From Lytechinus pictus (lineage: Eukaryota): DNA of 64,000 nt. Numbering within the stretch: position 1 is the first letter of the stretch; each line of letters starts with the position of its first letter. Both the position numbers and the translations under genes were made by a program. The notes below the pieces were generated by a model. That model ran no database searches, was not told the DNA's origin, and saw only the letters and a list, made by a program, of their open reading frames with translations. Positions 1,951 through 59,712 of the stretch are shown here, piece by piece. Location: assembly GCF_037042905.1 (NCBI RefSeq), contig NC_087251.1, forward strand, positions 11,410,001 to 11,474,000. Direction: 5' to 3'.

Positions 1951-2648
1951 CGAGCTGAAAACAAACACAAATTTCATGAAGATGTACATGAATATTTTAT
2001 TTGGTTTTATTGACAAGTTTAACACAGGCATAAAATTTTACAGCTCAAAATACACTTTCATGTGCTTAAAAGAATACACTTAACATCAATTTGTGTTCCT
2101 TAAAAAAAAAAAAAAATAATAATTCCTTTCCTCTTTATCATGTGAAAGTAAATTCTTTTAATTTGAATAAAGCATAGAGATATTTTTTTTATATTACTGT
2201 GAAGGAGCATGTTGCTAGAAATATATTTAGTAAATTTTGATTCACTTTGAAACTTTTGTAGTACTTTTATTATATTAACTAGCCATTTAATGAAGTGCAT
2301 AATTTAAAACCACTGACAGGTAAATTTCATTGAAATTCTCTTTTTGTTTGTAGTAGGAGTAGCTTGAGATATTTGGAAGATTTAGGGAAAGGTCGCATTA
2401 AATTGAAATTTTTTTGTAATACTTTCATTAGCTCCGTACCACTTATTATAGTATCCATAGTGTAGACAAATCACAGAATGTATTTGCATGAGGTGAAATA
2501 GTGATTTCCTTTTTGCCAAAGACATGAAGCCAATTTAGGGCTCTTTAATGTAAGTAAATTGTAGCTACATACATGTATATCCTGTTGAATTGTGATCTTC
2601 TCATTAAATTGATGACCAGCCATAGTTAATCTATTGCTTCAGCCAAAG

Positions 2649-3568
2649 TTAATCTATTGCTTCAGCCAAATTTTTATCAGGGAAAGTTCTCCTTTCACTA
2701 ACAGACCCTGAAACTGTCTTAATACCATTTGCACTGTTTTTTCCTAAAGAGGAGCATGGCTTGACTTCTATTGAAGACCGTTCGTCTTTGACAAAACTTG
2801 GAAAGTACCTTTTGAGGAATGTTTTTCTAAATGGTGCAAAAGTGATCATATATATAAAGGGGTTCATTGCACTGTTGAATTTGGCCAGGAATTCAAATGT
2901 GACGGATAGTTGCCATGGAAACTGATGTCTGGTGATGAGGCCGTAGTGCATCTCGATGGCGAATGGTCCCCAGCATATGAGGAATACGACGATGACCACG
3001 AAAATGCGGGCTGTGATGGTGATTTGTCTCCTAGTTTCTTCCAAACTTGTCTTTTCTCTGGCCGTGACCTGGTTCTGAACGTTTATCTTCTGCCCGGCTT
3101 TCCAGCTAATGTTTGTGATGCGTAAGCAGCAGTAGAAGATCACTCCCAGCGAAATGTAGAACCCGCACGTCAGTAGAATGATGGTGTAGGGCCTTGTGTT
3201 GTTGCTGGTGACATCGATCCCGCAGTTGTAGAAGAATGGCTGGAACTTGATGAAGTGTGATACCGTGACAGAAAACAATGCCATTGCAGATCCGTAGCCC
3301 CACGTTAGGAGGAGAAGGGAGAAGACGCGCCTCTTGGAGAAGATCAGTTGATAGCATAAGGGAACAGAAATGCAGACCAAGCGGTCAATACTGATGAGGG
3401 CTAGTGAGGTGATGGAGACAATGACCGTGCAGATGGCCGTAGAGGTCATGACCCTACAGAAGAGGTCAGTACTGTACCACTGACCTGTAATCACAACCGG
3501 GATGCAGAATGGCAAGTAGAAGATGCCGATGGATAAATCAGCAATGGCAAGGTTGATCAAGCAATAAC
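2649..3568 (-). CDS. Class A (rhodopsin-family) GPCR, last coding exon (TM2-TM7 and C-tail); opsin-like Lys at 7.43
   Basis: ORF with NLAIADL (TM2), FC (top of TM3), ISIDRL, TW (TM4), CGID (ECL2), FLICWGPFA (TM6), FEFLAKFNSAMNPFIY (TM7); acceptor ttcttgtag with AG at 3570-3569. Confidence 0.93.
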
Positions 3569-4235
3569 CTACAAGAATACACACAAGCAGCGAGGTAAAT
3601 CAAAGTGTAATTGAATTAAGACATACATTTCAGCAAGGACCGTTGCCCTGAAAATGATCTGAGCAAACTGTAGTGTCATAAGAGCATTCTGATTAGGCAA
3701 AAGACTGGAGGGGCTAGCTGTTCATAATCCATAGTGGCTTGCCCCTACAATACCTTTTGCTATGAATGTTCTGATACAACCACATTCTACCATATTTCAA
3801 TTTCAACACCTTGATCAGAAGACATTGTTTTATCCTAAAGTGTTCAACAGATTTATGAAAATCCATTAAAGTGAATTTTTCATATTCACTGTTTGCTTTC
3901 ATTTCCATATTGGTCATATTAGGCTTAGGGGATGTGCTTTTTTCATACTGTTAATAATGAGGTTTTGTGTGAAATGTCTCGTGCACATTGCAATTTTAAT
4001 CAACAATTGTAATAATTAGTGTTTCTTTGTTTCATCAAACCACAAAAGCCAGCAATTAGCCATGATACTTATTTTATAGGAAAGCAAAAATTAAAGAAGT
4101 TATGAAAATAATATCCTTATTTTTATCCCCTCAGAGTTAACTCAGCATGAAAAGAATTGAGCCTGATTTTCATTCACACTTCCAAATATCCCCTCCTTCA
4201 TAGGTTTCACTAGAAAGTGGACATAATGTATTTAC

Positions 4236-4404
4236 CTGTTTGGTTGAAGAGACTGGGTGTGGAGACTATTGTAATGATACTCAGTGTATTACCTGTGATG
4301 ATAACTGTTATGAGGATACAGATCATGATTAGTAGAGGGTAGTTTGGAGCCAAGACTTCCACTGGAGGAACCGTCTCAATTAGAGATGACATTTCAGTAA
4401 CATT
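4236..4404 (-). CDS. GPCR exon, N-terminus and TM1 (NVTEMSSLIETV...IITGNTLSIITIVSTPSLFNQTG)
   Basis: TM1 GN motif; donor CAG|gtaaat in phase 1 fits the next exon (G|GT-TAT); acceptor ctcctctacag at 4406-4405; an in-exon ATG at 4392 is the alternative start. Confidence 0.85.
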
Positions 4405-4609
4405 CTGTAGAGGAGATTAAAGTTGTATCGTATTTCATAGAATTCTTTTTCAATACCTGACAAACACAGTCCCAATTCATAATTAAATAAATTTCTTATG
4501 ATATGGATTTGATGCGAAGATGAAATCAGAAACACTGCTTCAAATCGGTGTACAGCGAGAAACAAAGAGACAGACAGAGAGACAGTGAGAGAGAGGGAGA
4601 GAGAGAGAT

Positions 4610-5410
4610 TAAAAGGTGATAAACAGTGAATAATTACAAGAAATATGCAGTGTACTCTGTATTATACCTATATGAAAGAATGAAGAAGAAAATCAACACT
4701 GAAAAGTTAAAATAAAAATTGGATATTAAATAAAAATGTTATGAAATTGAAATTTCACTTATTTTTTAACAAACAGTTATGCACAACACATGTAATATGC
4801 AAATGAGAGAGTCAATGATTTGCATTTTATTATATGAAATAGAAAATATTTCAATTTTTACAGATTTGACAATAAGGAAGCATCTTCATTGAATCCATCA
4901 ATATAGGTTGATTGAATATGAAAATTAAAATAAGAACCCATATTTCATTGTTCAAAATATTAATCTGAATTAGAAATCCTTCATAAATTCATTTTGCTCT
5001 ATCGATCGTGGGCCTGGCAGCCATTGTGCAGCGTCAGATGGACAGTGCTCTATCCCTTCAATCATTGAATGCCAAAAAGGGTAGCAACAACTCATTTAAC
5101 GTCTATTTGGTCTGATTCGGCTGGGGCTTGGACTCCCGACCTCCCTATTGTGCGACAGACTCTCTACCAACTGAGCCAATACGTAATGACATTCCCATAT
5201 ATTCAAAGTGGAACCAATCCTGTTTCACATTATAATGAGGAAAGATTTGAGACATTTCAAATTTCATACTGGCAAGGTTGTGCATTTAACTTTAAAATTG
5301 TGAAAGTAAGTGAAACTTCAAAATGTCATATCTTTTTATTTCATATCTGATTTGATGAATTTCTCTTTTCATGCAGATCAAATTTTTTTTGGTTTGGACT
5401 TGCCCTTTAA
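4610..5410. mobile_element. Degenerate TTAA-flanked (Kolobok-like) MITE interrupted by a SINE
   Basis: Patchy similarity to 12913-13515 (aacactgaaaa, cagttatgcac, atgcaaatgag); ends ggacttgccct-ttaa. Confidence 0.55.
5010..5180 (-). mobile_element. tRNA-derived SINE, 5' part
   Basis: Minus strand tggctcagttggtagag (A box) ... ggtcgggagtccaagccc (degenerate B box) followed by a non-tRNA body. Confidence 0.7.
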
Positions 5411-6732
5411 GTACATAATGATTGTTCAAGTTCATGCCGTTGTGATGGCCCTGCTATGTCACTGGACCAGCTGCGAAATGCATATTTAAAGTTCAAATGA
5501 TAGATCATATTTTCGCTGATGATAAAAGGAATGCATACATTATAAAAAATATATTGTATTACCGACAAATGCCATGTCAACATGCATGTACATTTTCTGT
5601 TTGACTTTTAACTATTTATCCCTTTTACATATCAAAGTATATTAATTTCTTGTTTGAAATAGATTCATGGAATGAAAGCATAAAATGGTTAAAGTGGATA
5701 TATCTCCATTTTTCTACATGTGAAATTTGATTACTGAAGCTATTAAAGGTGAAAATGTAAATTTGAACAGGATTGGATATCAGACAAGGAAATTAAATAT
5801 GTGTACTGTAAAAAATAATATGTTTAGATATCTGGCAACTATAACACAAAGCCCATCTATTGATAGCACATAATGATCAGTGCAATAATCATAATGATAC
5901 ATGTATTGACATCTGAAGATTCCAACAACGTGGTAAAGAAGAGATAACAACTAAAAAATTAGAGCAATTGAGGATAGACCAACATTTACAGAAATCAAAT
6001 CTTCATAATAAGGTTTTAGTAAGATTTTGAAGCAACCAACAGAGGAAATGATCTTGGAAGTGTGTTTCCATAGGAATTGTCTGCTATATTATAATGATGT
6101 ATTCTAAGAATGGTGAGATTGTGCTATATCAAGTAGAGATGGATTGGAAGGATACAGATTTCCACATACTAAGAATCTCGCTATATAATTGGTCATAAGT
6201 CAGGCATGTATTAGTTTCCCCATAAATCATAACACTCAGTGATGACACTTTTATGTTTGGCTGATAACTTAGCACAAATAGTCTGAAAACAATGTGTTAT
6301 GGATGATTTAGACTATGCGAGACTACTGAGTGAGATTATAGACACCACATTTCTAGTGGGAGCGGCAGCATTTCCAACATTGAAATCTTAACCAAGGTTA
6401 AGTTTTTGAAATGTCATCACATCTGTTAAAGTGCAAGGACTTATTCTTTAAAACGTAGACCTTTGGTTTTTATTTTCAAATAATTTTTCATTCTCCAGTT
6501 TTGAATAATTATTCATTTACATTTTTTCATATTCAGTGAAGCATGTATATAGGAGTATCATGTATCAGCCATCATGTGAGTAAAATTTCAGGTAATTTGG
6601 CTAAGGTCAAAGGTCATTTTAGGTCTAAAATCTAGATGAAAATTTATGTTTTGTCCTAGATGGTTATATCCACTCATTTCCTTTTTTCCATTTAGCTTTT
6701 CTGTCAAGTATTTGTTGCATATGTACATACAG

Positions 6733-8605: not shown

Positions 8606-9487
8606 ATGACATACATGTACATGTTTTCATATACATGTAAATGTTAGATCAATATTTCTATAGGGCACATATTATATCACAAATTGGGAAAATTAAACAA
8701 GTGCTTCTGATTTCATCAAATCCATATAAGAAATTTATCTAATTATAAATTGGGACTATGTCAGGTATTTGCAACTATAAGTCACTTTTCAACCAAACTT
8801 GGATTGTAGATGTAATTAGGTGACTCACATGTTATGGTGCAGTCGCAGGTCACCTGTAAAGGTAAAAGGTCATTTTGAGGTCAACGTTAAAGTTTAAGTG
8901 CAAGGCACTGGTAATACACATAATCTGCAACTGTAAGTCACTTTTCACCCATAATAAGAAGAAACATATTAATGAATATCTAGCAACAACAAAAAAACAA
9001 TTGACTTAAGGCAGAGTTATGAATTTTTTTTTTTAGTTATTTAATGTCACTGTGAGCAGCTCCGCTACTTTTTAATGATAAAAGTCAATTTGTTGCCATT
9101 TTAAATGGTTTACAATGATTGAATAAGTATTCCCTTTATTTGTCCAAACATGATGAGGATAGTGTGTCTTATGAATTGAATTGATTGGTAAGATCATTTT
9201 CAGTTTTCAAGAAATGTCACTTTATGAATTCATGTGATGAAACTACATTCATAATGAAAAGAACCTTTTCTTGTATTTTCTCTTTGCATTTTATTTCTGT
9301 TCAAATTTTAGCAATTTCATTTTTTTATTTTAAGAATGCCACTGCCAGAACATTTAAAATGTTCACAAAATACCTATTTGATGAACAAAATTGAGCCATA
9401 TGAATTTTTTTCTTAAAATGAATATTTGATTTCATAATGAAAATATAACTTTCATAAACTTTAATTGATTACCAGCCTTAAGTTTGA

Positions 9488-10090
9488 AGGGGTACCCCAG
9501 GCTGAAGTTAATATGATTTGAACAGATAAAGAAAAATCAGACAAACAAAACACTGAAAATTTGATCAAAATCGATGAATGACTAAGTTATGACATTTTAA
9601 AGTTTTACATTATTCCGGTGAAACAGTTCTAGACATGTCTTCATGATTATTCAGTTAGCAAATTGATGATGTCATATCCCCACTTGTTAGACTATTGTAT
9701 TTTATTATATGAAATTAGGTTCATTCAAAGTTTTTCCTGCAAGAACTAAAAAAAATGGATTGACAACTGATTTAGTGCATTAGATATTCATTGCTGCAAC
9801 TTATTTCATTATAAGGGAGACAAATTATGCACACATGTATGAAATAATGAAACATTTATGATTTCATGTAATAACATAAGAAAAAGGAAATTGGGGATGT
9901 ATCATCATCAGCCCACCTAAGGAATATTCATGACGATGTGCATATAACTGTTTTCACAAAATATTGATAAATTTTAAAATTCAATAACTTTTTTTATTTC
10001 TTATCAGATTTTGATAAAATTTTCAACATTTTGCTCTGTGAATCTAACTCTATTTATTCAGATATAAATGTTTTCAACCCGGAGTACCCT
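9488..10090. mobile_element. TTAA-flanked Kolobok-like MITE
   Basis: Ends ttga-aggggtacccc ... ggagtaccct-ttaa; long imperfect inverted arms related to 12913-13515. Confidence 0.7.
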
Positions 10091-16168: not shown

Positions 16169-17441
16169 GTAAGTCAGTCAGTCATCCAGGTTTCATGTCC
16201 CTGACTACGGGGGCAGCCAGATTCACCTTGCACTGTCAGAGTTCACCCTCTCTCTCTCTCCACTGTTCAGTGCATCCTCCTCCCTCAACCTAACCATCCT
16301 CCTTTCCTCCACCACCTGCTTCTTCCATGTCCACTTCAGTCATCTCCTTCCCCTCTAACCAGCCACCTTGAACTCAACCACCCTTCTCTAAACATGATCA
16401 TTATCCCTCCTGAACACATCTCCATACCTACATATTGAAAAAGTGCACAATGGAATCTGTCATGTTGTTATGACGTTGACACAAAACCCATATTAGTCAG
16501 ACTTTCAGGCATCATTGTATGAATTTCACTGAAATTTACTCAAAGTGCACCTTTAAGGTGACATTGATATTGGTGCAAAACATAAGGAATTTCACTCCTT
16601 CAACATTGTAATGTTGAGAGAAATTTTGCAAATCTGCCAGACAGCTCACTTCTTCAACAAGCTTTATTGTATGTCGCTGCAGATGAGGAGTCTCAATCAA
16701 TATTTGGGCTTTTATTTTTGTCTTCTTTGAGGTCAGCATTCTGACCTATGTGTAATTAATACTTGTAGTGATCAGTATTGTGATGGATACAACTTTTTAA
16801 ACAAAAATTATCAAACCCTATCAACTTGTTTTCAGCCAGAGGAAATGGGAATTTTTAATGAAAAGTTTTGTCAGTGATATTTATCGACAGTATTGCTGTT
16901 GGTTAATCAGATGCAATGATTTCAGTTGTTTCTAACAAAGGTCAATGAAGATGACTATCTTCCTAAATCGGCAATTATTCATGGAGTCTTTCTGAAAATG
17001 GAATGATTTCAGCATCCGAATTTTAATATCTGTGTGATTCTTTCATTGATTATGATTACTTTCATTAGATTATGTTTAGTTGAGGAAGGCCTCCATAATC
17101 AACTCTTATTCCTATCCAAGAAATATAAAGTTTAATTACTTGGATTTATCATGTACTTCCCATTTAAATATTTGGTGCAGATCATATAATATATTGAGCA
17201 GCTTTTACAGCCACATGCACACTCCCTACCCCCCTCCCCCTTATCATTGCTGCATATCATTTTTCTCTCTTCATTTACGATTCCTCTTATTTCTTTTCTA
17301 ATGATCTTATTTCCTGCTGTTCCTCATGTTGCCATCCCTCTTTTTGTTTCCCATCCCTTCTTTTGACAATAATGTACATTAAGCATCATACTCTCGACTG
17401 TATCACTAATCAAAAGATGTTTTCCATGCTTTCCTCTTCAG

Positions 17442-17579
17442 TGCTAATAGGCCATGACATCCACGATGAGCATTGTCGTATTGTGTGTACCAATGGTAAG
17501 GTGGTATTACACTCAATCCAAGGGGCAGACTGTGCAGTCAATGGCAAGGCTATCACGGAACCAACCAAGCTTACACAAG
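17442..17579 (+). CDS. KIF16B: KIF16B exon, FHA domain (LIGHDIHDEHC...VNGKAITEPTKLTQG)
   Basis: cttcag|TG...CAA G|gttagt; EHC and VNG motifs of the kinesin-3 FHA domain. Confidence 0.95.
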
Positions 17580-19509
17580 GTTAGTGAGGCAGAAGATTCC
17601 GTGTTTACATTTCAGAGTTGCATGGGGAGTGAAATGTATTTTAAAGGGTTTCAATGACTTTGTGGAAACTTAAATGATAATTGTGACACAATGTTACTTA
17701 TAAAATGTTATATTCATGTTTCATCTTTATCCCTGAGGCAGGGGGAGGCCCCGGAAAATTTGTATGATAAATTGTGATTGGCAACAATGCATTGACTCAT
17801 TAATTTTTATTGCTTATCATTTCTGATGTCATAATGTAGACACTTCAATATGATTTTATTTAGATAGATTTACAAAGAACCGGTAGTATGAAGGATTTGA
17901 ACTGAGTGATATAATAATCAACTTATCTATGACTTAATGGTGCTTTCATGAAATGGTTTTATGGTACCCTTTTACAACCCTGCTGTCTATAATAAAGGAA
18001 AATCACCTGGAAATTTCAATCTTTTGCACATCTTCTTCATCATTTAAAGCACATGATTCTTTAATATGAACAAAAAGGTTAAATATTTTTATTGGTAAAA
18101 GAAGATTATAAAAAGATTAGTTTCATTTAAAGGTATATGTAACATTAGATGAAAACTGTAAGCAGGTTGCTGCCTTTGTAGTATTTAATTTTAATGCAAC
18201 TGAAGAAATCTTTCTTTTTTATGAGAAGAATAGCATACAGCAAGTAACAGGGAAGAAATGTTTTCAATGAAAACAGGGGATGTGACACAAGAAGAGGCAA
18301 AAGAATATTGATGCATATACAAACTAATCACTTTTGAAATAATATCTGATTTCAAATCATTTTGCTAAAGATCCCTTATAAATTGGAATTAATTGAATTG
18401 ATGTTTGTAGTCCAATCAGGAGAAATTTGTTTATATGTAATGGAGCTGCATTGTTTTTGTATCTATGAGTGTTTATATTGATATTTTTTGTAATCATGCC
18501 AGCTGATCACAAAGGTCGATACTCTTAAGTAGACATTGAATATAATGAATACTTAATCTTGAATATTTACATCAATAACTGGGATATACTCATTTGATTT
18601 GCTAGTTCATTACGATTAACTTGCACGCCGAATAAAAGTACACAATTTTTCCTGCGCGCGCGCAGCATCTCCCTACGCACGCACTATCCCAAGATCATCA
18701 CGCAAAAAGGCGTCCATTTCCTCTTTTACTTTCGCCTGCCGCCGTGAGCAGACGTTAGCTAAGTACACTCCCACTTTTCTATAAAAAGTGTCCGTTGTTT
18801 ACATATTTATCTATGTATTTACAGCCTATTTCAATCCTTTGCCTTCGACTATAGACTGATTTCATTTATATCATAGTGCATGGAGCATTCGTGTTATTAT
18901 TCACGTTTTTCTTTAAATAAACTTGTGAGTTCCGAACGTCAGTTTCGTTTTCTCACAGACGGGTTGCTTCCGCTTCCCTTACCCGTAGCTCCGTGCTCTA
19001 TTCCTGCGTGCCGCAGGCATTGATACGACGCCAAATCTTTTTAATTCTTTATTATTCTTGACTTGCACCTTTGCCTCGTCTTGAATTGAATTGATTTTAT
19101 ATTCCTCCCCACAGCTTAGGCTATGGGACAGATAGGAGCGTCGTCCTTGTTTGTTCTCAAACTTGTTTTCAACTTGTTCCTTTGTGAGTTGGTTGATTGT
19201 CTCAATCAATATTTTGTTTTTGTTTGATTAATTGATTGATTGATTAATTAATGAATTTATTAATTGTTAATTAACCAATTGGTTAATTGTTTAATTATTA
19301 ATTAATTTTAATAATTATTTTTGTATTGAAATTTTTTTTTTTTTAGACTTATTGTCTTAAAAAAAATTTTCTCTTAAATTTTTTTGGGAAGCCCCCCTGT
19401 TTTCTATTAGCGTCCTTTAAAAAAGTTTTCGGCTTTCCAGTTTAAGGGAAGTAAGTTTTTACTTCTTCCTTTCAGATCAGCTCCTTTACTTATTTCTTTT
19501 GACCCTTGT

Positions 19510-20520: not shown

Positions 20521-20764
20521 ACGGCTTGATCAGATTTGGGTGATTTTTCTCATGCGAGATATTACGTCCCCCCTGTCTCTTGTGCCCTATTCTGCCCCCC
20601 GGCGGGGGCCGCATAGAAGAGGAAGAAGAAGAAATTCTAGGTTGCTAACCCCGCTTCGCGGGCAGACCCTTTCTTTCTAATTCTTGTGCCGATGGTCAGG
20701 CGTCGTAACTTCATGTTACAACAGAACGCCCTCGAGCATCACAGATTTTTATCCTCATGCTCTC

Positions 20765-21260
20765 TGTCAGCTAAAACCGCCGTGTCAAACACCAGGCAGG
20801 TCAAGCAGACATTCGCCATCTCACACCTCGGAGAGTCACCGGCAATTTCATGATTCGCCGGCGCACGCACCTGCAAGGGAAATTCCCGCTAATACACAGG
20901 TGTTATCGACATACGGGCATCGCCCCCCATTATGTCACCAGACTCCCGATAATTGTGGGTCACGCGTCGCAACTCTCATGTTGCTTCACACGCCCACGAG
21001 CAGTGCGGGTAAATTCCCCCACGCTTCATGTCAGCTTCAGCCGCCGTGTCAAGCACCGGGCAGGCCAAGCAGACATTCGCCATTTCATACCTCGGAGAGT
21101 CACCGGCAATTTCATGATTCGCCGGCTCACGCACCTGCAAGGGAAATTCCCGCTAATACACAGGTGTTATTGACATACGGGCATCGTCCCCATTATGTCA
21201 CCAGACTCCCGCTTCATGTCAGCTTTAGCCGCCGTGCTAAGCACCGTGCGGTTCAAGCAG
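20765..21260. repeat. About 263-bp tandem duplication inside DIRS
   Basis: tgtcagc...cagactccc block at about 20765 and 21029; partial third copy at about 21217. Confidence 0.88.
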
Positions 21261-21679
21261 TCACCTGCCCTCTCACGCCGGGCTTTTATTGAAACGCTGT
21301 TCACCTACACGGTGACCCCGTTTCCATGCAGGTGCTTCCAACATACGGCTTTCAAGCCAACATGTCGGCAAGCTCTCGATGACCGACGGCTGGACGTTGC
21401 ATCCTTACAGGTTGCATCAACACGTCCCGAGCATTACGGGTTCTTACCCTCGTGTTCTCCGTCATTACAGACCGCCGCTACGCGACGGCTGGGCTTATCA
21501 ACAGCCTCGCACCAGCCACCGGCCCTTTTCTTTGAAATTGCCGGCCCTTTTCACCCGCACGGGTGTTTTCATGATATGCACAGGTGCTGCTGACGTATGG
21601 GTCTCACCCAGCAAGTCGGCAAGCCCTCGTATGTCGCTGGTTGGTCGCTGCAGCCGCTTGACTGTTTTCTGTCGGTCTT

Positions 21680-23420
21680 ATTGCCGGTGACGGGCATTGA
21701 GCGGATTGAGTTTCTCCCGCCAGCCCGCACTCCGGGGAGCCGTCGGCGAGTTCACCTGCATGGGTATCCCCCATTAATATGCAGGTACTCCCGAATTCGC
21801 CCTCTACGTCAAGCCTCACAGTTTGACCGGGCATCGCTTTCGGCAACGGCTCTTTCAGCGGTAACTCTCTCCATTCTACCCCCTAGGCGGGCCTGTAGAT
21901 TGGAGGTAAGATTTTCTAACATACCGCATGCCTTCCTTCTCTCATGAGAATGTTTGGCTATCCGATAGACTGCCCTCTATGTGGGTCAAGCTTGCGGGCG
22001 TCTCCGCCGCTTCCTCGTGTGGAGTGGGCTACGGTCGATGCATTTACCGTGCCCGTGTGTCGAGTTGTCTTTTTTTTAGAAGCTTTTTCAATCGGCACAC
22101 TTGAGTCGCCTCGCAGGCTGCTTTCATCCTCCTTCCATGCTATGTATGTGACCGAGGATGATGTAATCGTGGTGGATATACATTTATGTATAAAATGTAA
22201 ACGTGTGTGTATGCATACTTATGCCTGTCTAACCACGATCACCACGACCCGCTTTCTCTCGGGCCGACTGTGGATGAGTCCCTCCATGAAAGTGATTTAC
22301 TTCACTGGAGTTCTTCTTTTTAGAAGCATAGATTCTCATCCCCCGCTGCTTAGGGCGTCATTTTTGCCGCCCCCCGCAGTTTCTCGGAACTCCTTATCTT
22401 ACCGATATCGGACTGTTCCATGCTGTTGCAACCGGCGCCGGCGGTGCTTGCCCTTGCGATCACCAGAGAAACCAGGCCTTGTGGCTGTTTTCGTAAACAA
22501 CTGGTTCTCATCGCAGACTGAGGGAAATATTGGTGATTATTTTCCTCAAGTCGCCTTTCTCCTCCGCTTGTTTCGTCAAGCGAGGACTTAGACACTCTTA
22601 GCCAGTTTCCGTCCCTAACCTTGATAGGACAGGGCCGTTGTTACCTCACTCGATCCCGTCGGGAACGTAACTGTTGAGGTATCATGTCTGGCGTTGTCTG
22701 TTGGTTCAGAACATCTTGACCGACATCTCTTGATCATCGTTTACACGTAAGATCATGACAGAGACATTGTTCGCCAGCTCATCTCTGGCGTACGCTTGCT
22801 GCGACTAGGGATTACTCCGCTCAGCGGACATCCATCGTAGCCTAGTCTTACGGACCCTCTCGGCGATGGTGGCTTCAGCCAAACCACCGCCCACCTCTCC
22901 CGCCGCGGGCACTGCACCCTCGGGCGGGTGTTTTATTTAGTACGGGACAAAAGGGATCCGCTGTCTATCACACTTATTATGTCGTGATGCGTGCCGCGTT
23001 TTTCTCCGACACGCCCGTTTGAGCTGCTTTGACCAGACTGTTCTATTCTACATAGACAGCAGGTCCGTGGCATTTTCTTATTAACAGAATGGCACTCAGT
23101 CGCCTTTCTCGACACATTGACTGCCTTACGAGTGGTTTACTTCAACCTTACTCTCTGTCGTTCCATGTCCTTTTCGGACCGCTGGAAACGTCCTGCCACA
23201 GCTCTCTATCAGAATTCTGCAGATGTTCTGCCCTCACGCATTTGAGACAGATATCGAATTCTGGGCGCCTTCTCCCACGCGGGGGCTTCTGAGTTATCTC
23301 GCATTCCTTACGTTTGCATGGTTGCGGCTTGGCTTAAATTATTAAGCCGGTGACTTGACCGTGGCTTTTATTAGCCCCGCTGTCGCCTTCTCAGATTGAT
23401 TGATGGATCACTTACTGAAC
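21680..23420 (+). pseudogene. Highly degenerate DIRS RT/RNase H remnant
   Basis: Fragmentary motifs in the expected order: EWATVDAFTVPV (about 22022; cf. DAYFHVPI), a TD..G.G-like segment near 22850, and an INRMG/GT.S-like segment near 23080; many frameshifts. Confidence 0.45.
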
Positions 23421-30639: not shown

Positions 30640-31734
30640 CTACAAGATGAGGTTAACATGAAGAAGGAGAAGCTACAGCAAGAAAGGGACGAAGAGCGCC
30701 ATTTTCTCCTGGTGGAGAAAGAGAAGCTGGAGGCACTCCGAGCCAAGCAGGAGATTGCTCAGAAGATCTCTTCCCAGATGGAAGATTCAGTCAAACAAAG
30801 ATTAGCCAGGGAAAGCAGTGAGATTGCCAAAGCTAGGGACCAGTTTGAAAAGTTGAAACAGACGCAGCTGGATGCCATCGAAGAAGAGGAGAAAAACATT
30901 CAGTCCAAGGCAGAGTTCTTGATAGGACAGATCTGGGAGAAGAGATCGCGATTAGAAAGTGAAAAGATAGAGTTGGATGACAGGGAGAGAGAAGGGCAAC
31001 AAAGGCTGGATAATGATTTGTTTACAAGTGTGGAAGAGAAGGATCTGCTGGAGAGAACTTTGAAAGAGGTCAGCAAGAGAAGGAGAGCTGTTCTTGAGGA
31101 AAGAGACTCTTTGGACGATGAGGAAAAGAAAGTGGAGAAGGTGATTGAGGCAGAGTTTGTGGTCCTCGAGCAACAGAAGCAAAAAGATGAGAAGCTATTA
31201 GAGGAGGAGTGGAAGAGCCTTCTCCAGATTGAGGCGGCAAACTTGGAGTTCATTGAACAGGAAGTGGTGGATAGGACAATGGGCTGGGAAAAGCAGAAGA
31301 CAAAGCTGACTAATATGGAGAAACAGCTCAAGAACTACCACCAGCAACAGAATGACTTGAGCAACCAGCAGCAGGCAGCTGTTGGGAAGCTTGAAACGGA
31401 GAGGACAACCATCAAGAATGAGTTCCATCAGTTGGAGCATGGTCTCCAGAAAGAGATCGGCCATCTGGAGCAGAAGATCATCGAGATTGACTCCCAGGAT
31501 GCAGGAGGGGCTGCCATCAAGGACCAGAAGGTCAAGGTGGACAGCATGGAACACAAACAGGCAGAGATCCTGGAGAACTACCAAGAGAAACTCAAGTCCA
31601 GTGAAGCAGAACTAGCCAGGGTCTTAGAGGAGATCACTAAGGAGAGATCGAAGTTGGATGAACTCAACCAGACTGGTAGCTTCATGGAAGGACAATTCAG
31701 AGTAGAGCAGAAGAAACTCAACTCTAAACTAGAG
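30640..31734 (+). CDS. KIF16B: KIF16B large coiled-coil exon (365 codons)
   Basis: ccttag|CTA CAA GAT...CTA GAG|gtatgt; corresponds to the 364-aa ORF in the track. Confidence 0.93.
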
Positions 31735-32066
31735 GTATGTCATAGAGATTAAGTACCAAGTCATAAGGCGTCATTGAATGTTATGGGTAAACCTGTCTTG
31801 CTCCCAACTGAGCAAGGTTTCAAATCATCTGACTGTAAAAAGCCAGCTATTCCATAATCCATCATATCTGGGCATAGTACTCGTAATTCTTAATTATACC
31901 ATTGCTTTTTTTTTCCTTGAGTCTATGACCAAGTTTGATCAATTATCGCTTATTGTGATATGTGAACACCCATACATGTATGTTGGCGATAATGATGAAG
32001 ATGATAAGAGTTTCATTGCTTGATTAATACAACTTTAATTTTTATTTATCATCTGCACATTTACAG

Positions 32067-55542: not shown

Positions 55543-55773
55543 TCAGAACTGTGGATTACCAAACCCCACTTCCTCCTGCGTCTTGTTGATTTCCTCCAGA
55601 AGCCCATCATCAGACAGTCCCACCTTGAGGGAATACTTGTAGGCCTGCTCAGCCTCCTGCTGTCGACCGGTCCTTAGGCACACCAGGGACAGGTAGCCCC
55701 AAACCTCAGGGTCGCTGTTGTTCAGTATGTTAGCCTCACAGAGAGCATCTTCTGCTTCAGACAGTTCTCCAAG
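55543..55773 (-). CDS. CFAP70: CFAP70 (TTC18) last coding exon ([19 protein letters not shown]...EVGFGNPQF*)
   Basis: Matches the known CFAP70 C-terminus pattern [41 protein letters not shown]; acceptor tctgaag. Confidence 0.93.
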
Positions 55774-57176
55774 CTTCAGACGAAAAGGGGAACAGAGTGA
55801 CCAATACTGTATCAGTTGAAATTTAGAACTGGTTGTATATCTTTTAAGCTAACATGTACCACATCATCCAAAAATTCTACTTCTGTATATTTCCATTGCT
55901 GTACATGAAAACAACAAAGTGTTAAAATTACAACTTATAACTATGCTGAATCAGTGAATTATAGTCATAGTATACGTACAACAGAATATTGGCTTATTCA
56001 GTTGCATGGTTTCCAGTCATTTTATTTAATGAAAGTTGGTCTCATTTCGGGGAATTTTTCACAGAAAGAGTTTCGATTAAAACTACTCAAACAGTCAAGA
56101 GCGAGTCTCAAATGCACCCTGGTTGAAAATCAAGTTGTGTTTGACTTTCAGAATTGTATTTTGCATTTGATTGCAAATCTTTTTTAAATGGGTCCCTGAT
56201 CACCACTACCGACAATTTTAGATGGTTTTTCAGTCTCATTTGTGCCCCTGAAAAGGCAGCTATATAGTGGTGCTCTGAAAATTACCTGATTGGATTGTAT
56301 TAGACCATTACCACGACAACCCAAACCCTGCTATATTTGGCCAACACCTCTTGATTTTAACAAGGATTATTGAAAGGTAATCTTAAGATAAGCACTTCAT
56401 TTCTTACATAAGAAAATTACATTGTCTATGCCAAAATGTCTACAATCCTCCCATCTTTAGTAGGAAAATTACAAGATTAAGAGAATAGAGCTTAAAAGAA
56501 AATGGGTTTTTTTCTGCATATATTGTGTTTTGTTGCTATTTCAGGTGACAATCCTGAATAGATACCATTCCTCATAATGCAGTTAAAGTCATATATACAC
56601 ACATGGTGCATTTCTATTGATACTGACAAGTAATGCACAGCATGTAGTCTAGGACATTTCATTTGTGTTTCATTAGTTTCATTAACTGTTTTTAAAGTAA
56701 CATTATCAAACTTTATGAAGAGGAAAATGGCAAGACGAATATTCCTCTCAAGGATTTTTAAAGTATAAGAATATTTTGAGATATGGAGATTTGATGAACA
56801 TTTTCACTGCAAAACTACATTTTCAAGAAATTTCTTTAAAATCATTTGAAATATAGTAAAATTAATAAGAATGTGGGGAAAATACTTGGCCTCGCATTTC
56901 AAATTCATATCCTAGTCGTTTGCAAAGATATGCATACTTTAATGAAGGGGGGGGGGGGATATTCCACAAAGAGTTAAATGTGACTTAAATGCTGACACAC
57001 ACATTATATGTAACACTCAGTCTTATTGAGTAATATGCAGAAGCGTACATTCTCTTTGCATGATTTGACCAATGCGGTGATGCAAGCTACTGTGAATTAA
57101 AGTGTAACTCTAAGTCATGCTCAAGTTTTTATGAAATATCCCCCAGGTCTATGAAACAGGTGTCATGTGTACTTAC

Positions 57177-58615: not shown

Positions 58616-58939
58616 CAGGGTTGCAGGGATGTGCACAACATGGGCAGTATGCAAATGAAGAGAAACCGATGTTACACAAACACTGTTAATTTCATATTTG
58701 ATAACATAAAATTTCAAACATTAAAAAAAAATTCTCAATAATATATAATATGACTTGTCTCCTCATGGAACAAAATCTAGTTGACTATAAGTTATTATGA
58801 TTAAATGGAGAGCTGCTTTATCAGAACTGAAATATAGTAAATCTTTTTAAGAGGATAAAGATACCAATAGAACGATACCACATTTCAAAGTAAATAATTA
58901 ATTAAATCAAATATCAAAATAAGAAGATGGGATAATTAC

Positions 58940-59101
58940 CTGTCCATCTTGGAGATAAATGGAAGCCAGACGAAGGTAAATGGCATGCATCTCCCTGGCA
59001 TCAGCAACAAAAGACAAGGTCCTCTCATAGCAATCCTTGGCCTCCTCAAAGTTACCTTGAAGGTAACGAAGATGGCCCAAGATAGACCAGGCATCAGGGT
59101 C
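58940..59101 (-). CDS. CFAP70: CFAP70 exon, TPR (DPDAWSILGHLRYLQGNFEEAKDCYERTL...YLQDGQ)
   Basis: gtccag|GAC...CAG|gtaatt; TPR consensus W..LG..Y...G...A...Y. Confidence 0.93.
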
Positions 59102-59712
59102 CTGGACCAGAAAAGGAAAGGAAAGTTTGTCAGCAACAAGGTTTAGTTTAATTCATTCAGGATAATGAGATTATTTGCAAACTTAAATGTATCGGATTTA
59201 TTATTAAAATCGTGTGAATTAGTATTCTTTTTATTATTTTGTTACCTTTTTCTTTGATCGTTAATTATAATAAATAACAATTATAAATGAAAATACAAAT
59301 AATAAAGTGCTTGTATCCACTCTGAAGAGTGCTCAAGTCATTAATTATCATTTGCTCTAGCCCAAATGCTTTCCTGGTGCACACTCGTTTCAAGGAATGA
59401 ATATGCAGAAAAAGATAAAGATAGAGTCTTTTAAAAATTCGAAATTGGCAAATTTTATTGCATTGCCATTTTAAGGATTTGGATATCATTTTTTGTTAGT
59501 ATTGAAGGAGGGACACTTTAGGCAATAATCATGAGTACAGTACGTGTGATTTTTTTCTTTAGTGATATAAAAGAGAAATTGAAATGAAATATGAGTGAGA
59601 TTTCTGTGAATAGATACCAACTATGAGGTGCATTCTAGATGTGATCTATTGCTTTTATCATCATTTTCAATTTACATAATCCAAATTCAAATGAAAGAAA
59701 CTTAAATCTTAC

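Follow-up and report, generated by a model that had tools for sequence, protein, structure and literature searches.

A class A receptor of Lytechinus pictus with the opsin-type lysine and a glutamate one turn away: an orphan of an echinoid and hemichordate family, probably not a light sensor

A lysine at position 7.43 of transmembrane helix 7 (TM7), the K296 of opsins, serves in practice as the criterion by which opsins are recognized among G protein-coupled receptors (GPCRs); Guhmann et al. 2022 (PMC9368030) report the residue in two of 1084 non-opsin GPCRs. Sakai et al. 2025 (eLife, PMC12401545) describe opsins, those of the anthozoan-specific group II (ASO-II), that can function with Glu292 and chloride and no classical counterion, and the opsin classes given for sea urchins in PMC9454927 are the c-opsin, Go-opsins 3.1 and 3.2, the r-opsin, echinopsins A and B, peropsin and RGR-opsin. 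Here we examine a gene in a stretch of 64 000 nucleotides of Lytechinus pictus DNA (the window; contig NC_087251.1, positions 11,410,001 to 11,474,000), the product of which is a class A receptor with lysine at 7.43 and glutamate at 7.39. On the evidence of its sequence, this candidate is an orphan receptor of an echinoid and hemichordate family that lies outside the opsins as sampled, and it belongs to none of the urchin opsin classes listed in PMC9454927. A role as a light sensor is improbable.

The gene lies on the minus strand at 2649-4404 of the window and its translation (of 2400-4700) contains seven helices. The protein is 100% identical to L. pictus XP_063957987, 'D(2) dopamine receptor-like isoform X1', of 364 amino acids. 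The first-pass annotation had called the gene a hidden GPCR, which is wrong because RefSeq already annotates it under this accession; the spliced length of 364 amino acids that it gave equals that of isoform X1. The match to the Pfam family 7tm_1 (PF00001) has an E-value of 1.5e-34 and scores 120 bits against a cutoff of 30.5, and the microswitches of class A are present as GN1.50, D2.50, DRL instead of DRY, CWxP, Asn7.45/Ser7.46 and NPxxY. TM7 reads VTFEFLAKFNSAMNPFIY, and the residues and motifs on which the comparison with opsins turns, including those of the second extracellular loop (ECL2), are encoded as follows.

2880-2882, minus strand: Lys288 (isoform X1 numbering), codon AAA, position 7.43, from the translation and alignment
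2892-2894, minus strand: Glu284, codon GAA, position 7.39, four residues before Lys288
3210-3227, minus strand: ECL2 motif NCGIDV, in which Cys174 is the conserved loop cysteine, from the translation and alignment
2958-2975, minus strand: TM6 motif CWGPFA, comprising C6.47, W6.48, P6.50, F6.51 and A6.52, from the translation

Lys288 is assigned to 7.43 because it precedes the Asn of NPxxY by six residues; it falls in the K296 column of all 44 opsins in the alignment described below, in which none of the 45 non-opsins has lysine, and stands opposite Tyr7.43 of the beta1-adrenergic receptor (beta1AR). The lysine in the opsin register, the glutamate at the 292-equivalent and the two motifs were thus all read correctly in the first-pass annotation, as was the lack of an acid at the three known counterion sites: the equivalent of position 94 (2.61, counted from D2.50) is Cys, that of 113 (3.28) is Met99 and that of 181 is Gln168. 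An acidic counterion at E113 or E181 is therefore absent from the candidate, whereas 39 of the 44 opsins have Glu at 181; by analogy with ASO-II, Glu7.39 is a possible substitute. The pocket is hydrophobic, being lined by Met3.28, Ala3.32, Ile3.33, Val3.36, Leu5.42, Leu5.43, Phe6.51 and Ala6.52. An AlphaFold2 (AF2) model built on a 108-row alignment, which replaced a single-sequence model with a predicted local distance difference test score (pLDDT) of 40.5, reached a pLDDT of 88.8 and a predicted TM-score of 0.85, and shows seven helices and helix 8, with ECL2 modelled as a beta-hairpin of strands 165-168 and 173-176.

The phylogeny was computed from 97 rows of 363 columns in a careful IQ-TREE run under LG+C20+F+G4 with posterior mean site frequencies. 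The rows comprised eight members of the candidate's family, 43 hand-picked opsins and 46 non-opsins, of which one (P0056) turned out to be opsin 4xa of cod and was re-labelled, giving 44 opsins and 45 non-opsins. The non-opsins were the first 46 of 66 best-match proteins passing a filter for 300-520 amino acids and DRY-like and NPxxY-like motifs. The opsins were picked from about 190 as named, near-full-length proteins of different classes, fragments and the 706-amino acid P0286 being excluded, and they sample six or seven classes (c-, r-, Go-, opsin-5-type, peropsin-like and echinopsin types). The r-opsins were gathered through P0116, the one opsin with K7.43 among the best 150 matches to the candidate; the named c-, Go-, opsin-5-type, peropsin-like and echinopsin-type proteins were reached through a TM6-7 profile of seven lysine-bearing opsin loci of L. 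pictus. The search for opsins in the L. pictus genome used an 89-residue opsin fragment, and six stretches of 341-401 nt were retrieved; the full L. pictus opsin models are database proteins, not assembled from DNA.

In this maximum-likelihood phylogeny, which the first-pass annotation had proposed, a branch with an ultrafast bootstrap (UFBoot) of 99 and an SH-like approximate likelihood ratio (SH-aLRT) of 99, found in 100% of 200 bootstrap trees, sets the 44 opsins apart, and the candidate falls with its family on the other side of it; a quick tree agrees. The eight ambulacrarian proteins (the Diadema, Lytechinus and Ptychodera relatives) form a clade at 100/97 and the four orthologues within it a clade at 100/98, while deep nodes on the non-opsin side are weak (UFBoot 15-57). 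Lysine at 7.43 requires three changes on the tree: one falls on the branch of the opsins, the other two among the orthologues.

The residues that distinguish opsins from other receptors point the same way. Eight columns of the alignment are conserved in at least 80% of the opsins and in no more than 25% of the non-opsins, and the candidate matches two of them, A7.42 and K7.43. The six that it misses include Tyr6.51 (44/44 opsins; Phe in the candidate), Pro7.38 (42/44; Phe), Glu181 (Gln) and Ser7.45 (37/44; Asn). Of the 12 columns that are correspondingly characteristic of non-opsins, six show the non-opsin residue in the candidate and none shows the opsin consensus. Position 3.36, which is Gly, Ser or Ala in all 44 opsins, is Val, and the residue four beyond the ECL2 cysteine, aromatic in all 43 opsins that bear this cysteine, is also Val. 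The seven L. pictus opsins have nine invariant residues (W6.48, P6.50, Y6.51, P7.38, A7.42, K7.43, N7.49, P7.50 and I7.52), seven of which the candidate carries. The strings 'CGID' and 'CWxPxA' are weak evidence for an opsin; in the case of 'CGID' this is because, by a hand count, about nine of the 44 non-opsins with an ECL2 cysteine share the Asp three residues beyond it.

When the candidate was compared with all chains in the PDB using phmmer, the best scores were those of beta1AR (91 bits) and TAAR1 (68), followed by alpha1A, D2, H2 and MT1 (57), and the first opsin, squid rhodopsin, came at rank 56 with 50.7 bits. The same comparison recognizes divergent urchin opsins, since a divergent intronless opsin of L. 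pictus (P0284), taken as a control, retrieved opsins as its top 31 matches (142-104 bits), with amine receptors trailing at 90 bits or less. In Foldseek, opsins were absent from ranks 1-50 for the AF2 model, which were adrenergic, H3, 5-HT1D, D2 and OX2R structures; this result is not fully independent because the alignment behind the model comprised non-opsin relatives. Against the opsins of L. pictus itself, BLASTP gave 40-76 bits only, and the profile of TM6-7 from the seven L. pictus opsins matched 71 proteins, among which the candidate and its family members were absent.

The family appears from these sequences to be small, and was recovered from sea urchins and a hemichordate. When 1.84 billion representatives were searched exhaustively with phmmer, only five proteins reached E < 1e-30, and a word-indexed database search gave three at E ≤ 1e-10. 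At 91% identity, the orthologue of L. variegatus shares the candidate's TM7, K7.43 included. A 244-amino acid ENA protein (P0005), 53-58% identical, has K7.43 in a TM7 that reads FEFLAKFNSAVNPFIY and the ECL2 motif NCGIDV. The Diadema antillarum protein (P0004), 56% identical, has FGFLANFNSAMNPFIY as TM7 and SCAIAV in ECL2, with G7.39 and N7.43, so that Glu and Lys have been lost together. Conservation of the pair in orthologues, which the first-pass annotation had put forward as a check, accordingly holds for L. variegatus and P0005 and fails for D. antillarum. Outside the orthologues, the Ptychodera protein (P0008) has Val at 7.43, and a group of paralogues, comprising P0006 of D. setosum, P0007 of L. 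variegatus and a locus of L. pictus (L002, G000:C20:2173745-2174554), has Glu at 7.43; Glu7.39 is present in three of the seven family rows that cover TM7. L002 is the next-best match to the candidate in the L. pictus genome, at 34% identity, and has the same phase-1 intron after TM1, at the junction NQTG|xCLINLAIADL.

The paralogues with Glu7.43 also lack Asp3.32, and an acidic residue at 7.43 might replace the counter-charge for an amine in this subgroup. We considered whether they could be astropsins and rejected the assignment: no opsin occurs among the best 60 PDB matches of P0006, and its NPxxY is intact. No orthologue was found for Strongylocentrotus purpuratus in two database searches of annotated proteins, although the species is represented there, and since S. 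purpuratus is nearer to Lytechinus than Diadema is, this is either gene loss or missed annotation.

How surprising a lysine at 7.43 should be depends on the number of receptors in the genome. In L. pictus, class A candidates number about a thousand (977 and 1429 in first-look counts) and, at the rate of 2/1084 given in PMC9368030, one to three receptors with K7.43 would therefore be expected by chance per genome. Lys7.43 alone is thus not beyond chance, but its conservation together with Glu7.39 is. Because the pair is kept in P0005 at only 53-58% identity, it is, as far as sequences can tell, under selection for something, and on the tree it is a lineage-specific innovation, the lysine of which arose inside the family, independently of the opsin lysine.

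We consider it very probable that the candidate is a chemically activated receptor. It would most likely act as an ordinary ligand-activated receptor with standard microswitches, in which Lys7.43 and Glu7.39, one helical turn apart on TM7, would form a charge-compensated pair in the ligand pocket, touching a polar or charged group of a small ligand or making an intrahelical salt bridge. Such a pair is favoured over an indispensable chromophore site because Diadema has lost both residues jointly.

Several observations weigh against this interpretation. The receptor is an orphan with no known ligand, and Lys7.43 is rare outside opsins, both in our non-opsin rows and among the best 150 of 10547 matches in the exhaustive search, where the query, P0005 and one r-opsin are its only carriers (the opsins among these 150 being only two, of the r-opsin/melanopsin type). 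The Lys/Glu pair and NCGIDV have been kept together in P0005; A7.42, A6.52, W6.48, the absence of D3.32 and the predicted beta-hairpin of ECL2 are compatible with an opsin-like pocket. A feature search of the ESM Atlas placed clusters named 'opsin-5-like', 'opsin 8b', 'parietopsin' and 'Opsin-5' among the nearest, interspersed with cnidarian GPCR, HTR4 and DRD4-like clusters, and serves as a lead only. The tree was built without cnidarian (ASO-I/II, cnidopsin), xenopsin, ctenophore or placozoan sequences, and in approximately unbiased (AU) tests a sister-group relation between the family and all 44 opsins was not rejected (log-likelihood difference 6.5, p 0.39), and its union with the opsin-5 type clade was rejected only marginally (difference 40, p 0.041).

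These observations bear on two alternatives in which the lysine would matter for light. In the first, a non-opsin GPCR would have become a photopigment by convergence, with its own Schiff-base lysine at 7.43 binding retinal or another aldehyde and with Glu7.39 as the counterion or chloride site, as in ASO-II. The combination of K7.43 and E7.39 with no acid at the 94, 113 and 181 equivalents is indeed that described for ASO-II in PMC12401545, and a hydrophobic pocket with small residues at 3.32 and 6.52, the persistence of the pair in P0005 and the opsin-5-type clusters near the candidate in the ESM Atlas are all in its favour. The lysine of such a receptor, one of the two possibilities raised in the first-pass annotation, fares well, its changes on the tree being separate from that on the opsin branch. 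The retinal pocket does not: Val3.36, Phe6.51 and Phe7.38 depart from residues that are invariant or nearly so in opsins, and Asn7.45/Ser7.46 are as in ligand-gated receptors. The base rate of K7.43 per urchin genome, the loss of both residues in Diadema, the lack of an annotated S. purpuratus orthologue and a depth below 1 in two raw RNA runs also count against a convergent photopigment, which we regard as very unlikely.

The second alternative, also raised in the first-pass annotation, is a true but extremely divergent opsin lineage, sister to the opsins or hidden within them, in which the ancestor would have had K7.43 and the other members would have lost it. The AU test leaves the sister position open to the eight-member family, the deep non-opsin nodes are weak, and sea-urchin astropsins, as described in PMC9368030, have Glu in place of K296, as do two of the paralogues here at 7.43. 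Such a history would, however, require at least three losses of the lysine (in Ptychodera, in the Glu7.43 clade and in Diadema) against one gain and one loss, and the opsin-only branch at 99/99, which encloses the echinopsin types, leaves the candidate outside. The absence of six of the eight signature residues, the amine receptors that head its list of solved relatives where the divergent control opsin retrieves opsins first, the opsin-free matches and intact NPxxY of P0006, the failure of the TM6-7 profile to reach the family and the low scores to L. pictus opsins are all contrary to it, and we hold it to be a little less probable still than a convergent photopigment. Equally improbable is a decaying or functionless gene with its odd residues due to relaxed constraint, as the unfound S. 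purpuratus orthologue, the low RNA depth, a predicted isoform that deletes N1.50 and the Ser in place of P5.50 could suggest, since the frame is open with all other microswitches intact, the orthologue in L. variegatus is 91% identical, TM7 is nearly identical in P0005, and a correctly spliced transcript is seen.

The structure of the gene in the window is as follows.

2649-3568, minus strand: last coding exon, from TM2 to the C-terminus, with the stop codon TAA at 2649-2651, from the translation and its 100% identity to XP_063957987
3569-4235, minus strand: phase-1 intron of 667 nt with GT..AG ends, from the gene model, skipped in transcript contigs
4236-4404, minus strand: coding exon for the N-terminus and TM1, with the acceptor AG at 4405-4406, from the translation and the contig of run X2
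4390-4392, minus strand: ATG start of isoform X2, from the sequence
2284-2648, minus strand: 3' untranslated region, at least this far, from a 1724-nt contig of run X2 that extends from 2284 through exon 2
4291-4292, minus strand: GT of an alternative 5' splice donor (predicted isoform X3), from a comparison of P0156 with P0003

The first two residues of isoform X1 derive from an upstream exon outside 4236-4404. The gene is transcribed and correctly spliced, because contigs from sequencing runs X1 and X2 lack exactly the predicted intron; these contigs, and one raw RNA read of run X22, skip 3567-4233 (667 nt) and join 3566 to 4234, the excised ends being CT..AC on the plus strand and the cut ambiguous by up to 4 nt. 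Runs X1 and X2 were taken as RNA solely because their contigs lack the intron. A contig of run X2 covers 4234-4406 joined to exon 2, and the 1724-nt contig continues from 2284 through both exons into 268 nt from elsewhere.

Isoform X3 (345 amino acids) loses 19 residues, including Asn1.50; judged by its sequence, it would probably fail to fold as a receptor. L. variegatus has a corresponding predicted isoform. At the other end of the protein, an exact 23-nt tandem duplication at 2625-2670 on the minus strand, two copies of tttggctgaagcaatagattaac, spans the stop codon. The C-terminus of the L. variegatus orthologue runs on as ...AEATMAGHQFHGNITIQHDIHV, and a similar peptide, TMAGHQFNEKITIQQDIHV, can be read in L. 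pictus only past the stop, in an open reading frame (ORF) at 2471-2638. From the duplication and this peptide beyond the stop, the C-terminal tail of L. pictus appears to have been shortened by an indel.

A location of the gene in an intron of KIF16B, which the first-pass annotation had assumed, was not confirmed. The sole hint is an ORF on the plus strand at 17198-17581 with weak similarity to FHA/KIF1A (Pfam E-value 6e-4, just below the cutoff; PDB E-value 8.6e-4), which could belong to a kinesin-3 gene running opposite to the receptor, as one of its exons; neither the 93 ORFs of 75 or more amino acids on both strands nor the 78 plus-strand ORFs of 38-74 amino acids within 1-17.8 kb included a kinesin motor exon. 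Just upstream of the receptor gene, the stretches 4670-4936, 6272-6538, 8675-8941 and 9476-10000 have summed contig depths in the thousands with many loose ends and strand-switch joints, and look like abundant repeats or transposable elements. Long open frames at 20681-22588 and 30640-31749 on the plus strand (203, 223 and 370 amino acids), with no Pfam match at E ≤ 0.001, are possibly degraded mobile-element genes, and minus-strand ORFs at 55546-55848 and 58910-59152 with tetratricopeptide-repeat matches (TPR_1, E-value 3.4e-8) are probably exons of another gene. Elsewhere in the genome, L. pictus has at least seven opsin loci with K7.43.

G000:C18:18492135-18493319: intronless echinopsin-type opsin (L012/P0284)
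C18:7.27 Mb: second echinopsin-type opsin
C18:6.56 Mb: r-opsin
C7:9.26 Mb: c-opsin
C2:68.02 and 68.07 Mb: two tandem Go-opsins
C7:17.62 Mb: opsin-5-type gene

With its lysine conserved within a family that appears to be non-opsin, the candidate is an expressed counter-example to the use of Lys7.43 as the mark of an opsin, and a caution for motif-based opsin mining. It also offers a cheap test case for whether a lysine at 7.43 suffices for a retinal pigment. Should it bind retinal, a GPCR photopigment, and with it photoreception, would have a second, convergent origin in animals; should it not, as we expect, the Lys/Glu pair would point to an orphan receptor, specific to echinoids, with unusual ligand chemistry.

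Among described systems, the two non-opsin GPCRs with K7.43 of PMC9368030 are, like the candidate, of class A; the supplementary text of that paper contains none of four L. variegatus accessions, those of the two isoforms of the orthologue and of two paralogues, and among the papers that a literature search for the residue returned, none is by its title about a non-opsin receptor that carries it. The coral ASO-II opsins (Antho2a), compared here through their description in PMC12401545 rather than by sequence alignment, share with the candidate Glu at 292 (7.39) and the lack of an acid at the three established counterion sites, but are opsins with demonstrated retinal binding and use of chloride. 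Animal opsins, including the sea-urchin set, share with it K7.43, A7.42, A6.52, W6.48 and the Asp three residues beyond the ECL2 cysteine, but differ in having Tyr6.51, Pro7.38, Glu181, Ser7.45, a small residue at 3.36 and an aromatic residue four beyond that cysteine.

The aminergic and trace-amine receptors are nearer. They provide the best solved sequence matches (turkey and human beta1-adrenergic, TAAR1, TAAR13, alpha1A, D2 and H2, at 91-60 bits) and the best Foldseek matches (TM-score 0.79-0.87, normalized on the target), and have in common with the candidate C6.47, W6.48, P6.50, F6.51, N7.45, S7.46 and the string NSAMNP; the automatic RefSeq names within the family are D2-like, beta2-like, TAAR7f-like and TAAR13c-like. 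In contrast to them, the candidate has Ala103 in place of Asp3.32 (Asp in 25 of the 45 non-opsins in that column), F, A and K in place of W7.40-G7.42-Y7.43 (F-L-A-K in TM7), Leu5.42 and Gly5.46 instead of Ser, Ser for Pro5.50 and an ECL2 predicted as a beta-hairpin. Because Asp3.32, W7.40-G7.42-Y7.43 and Ser5.42/5.46 are absent, it is, to judge from these residues, not strictly an amine receptor; in sequence and predicted fold it nevertheless comes closest, of the systems compared, to amine, trace-amine and melatonin-type receptors, minus the amine-binding Asp3.32.

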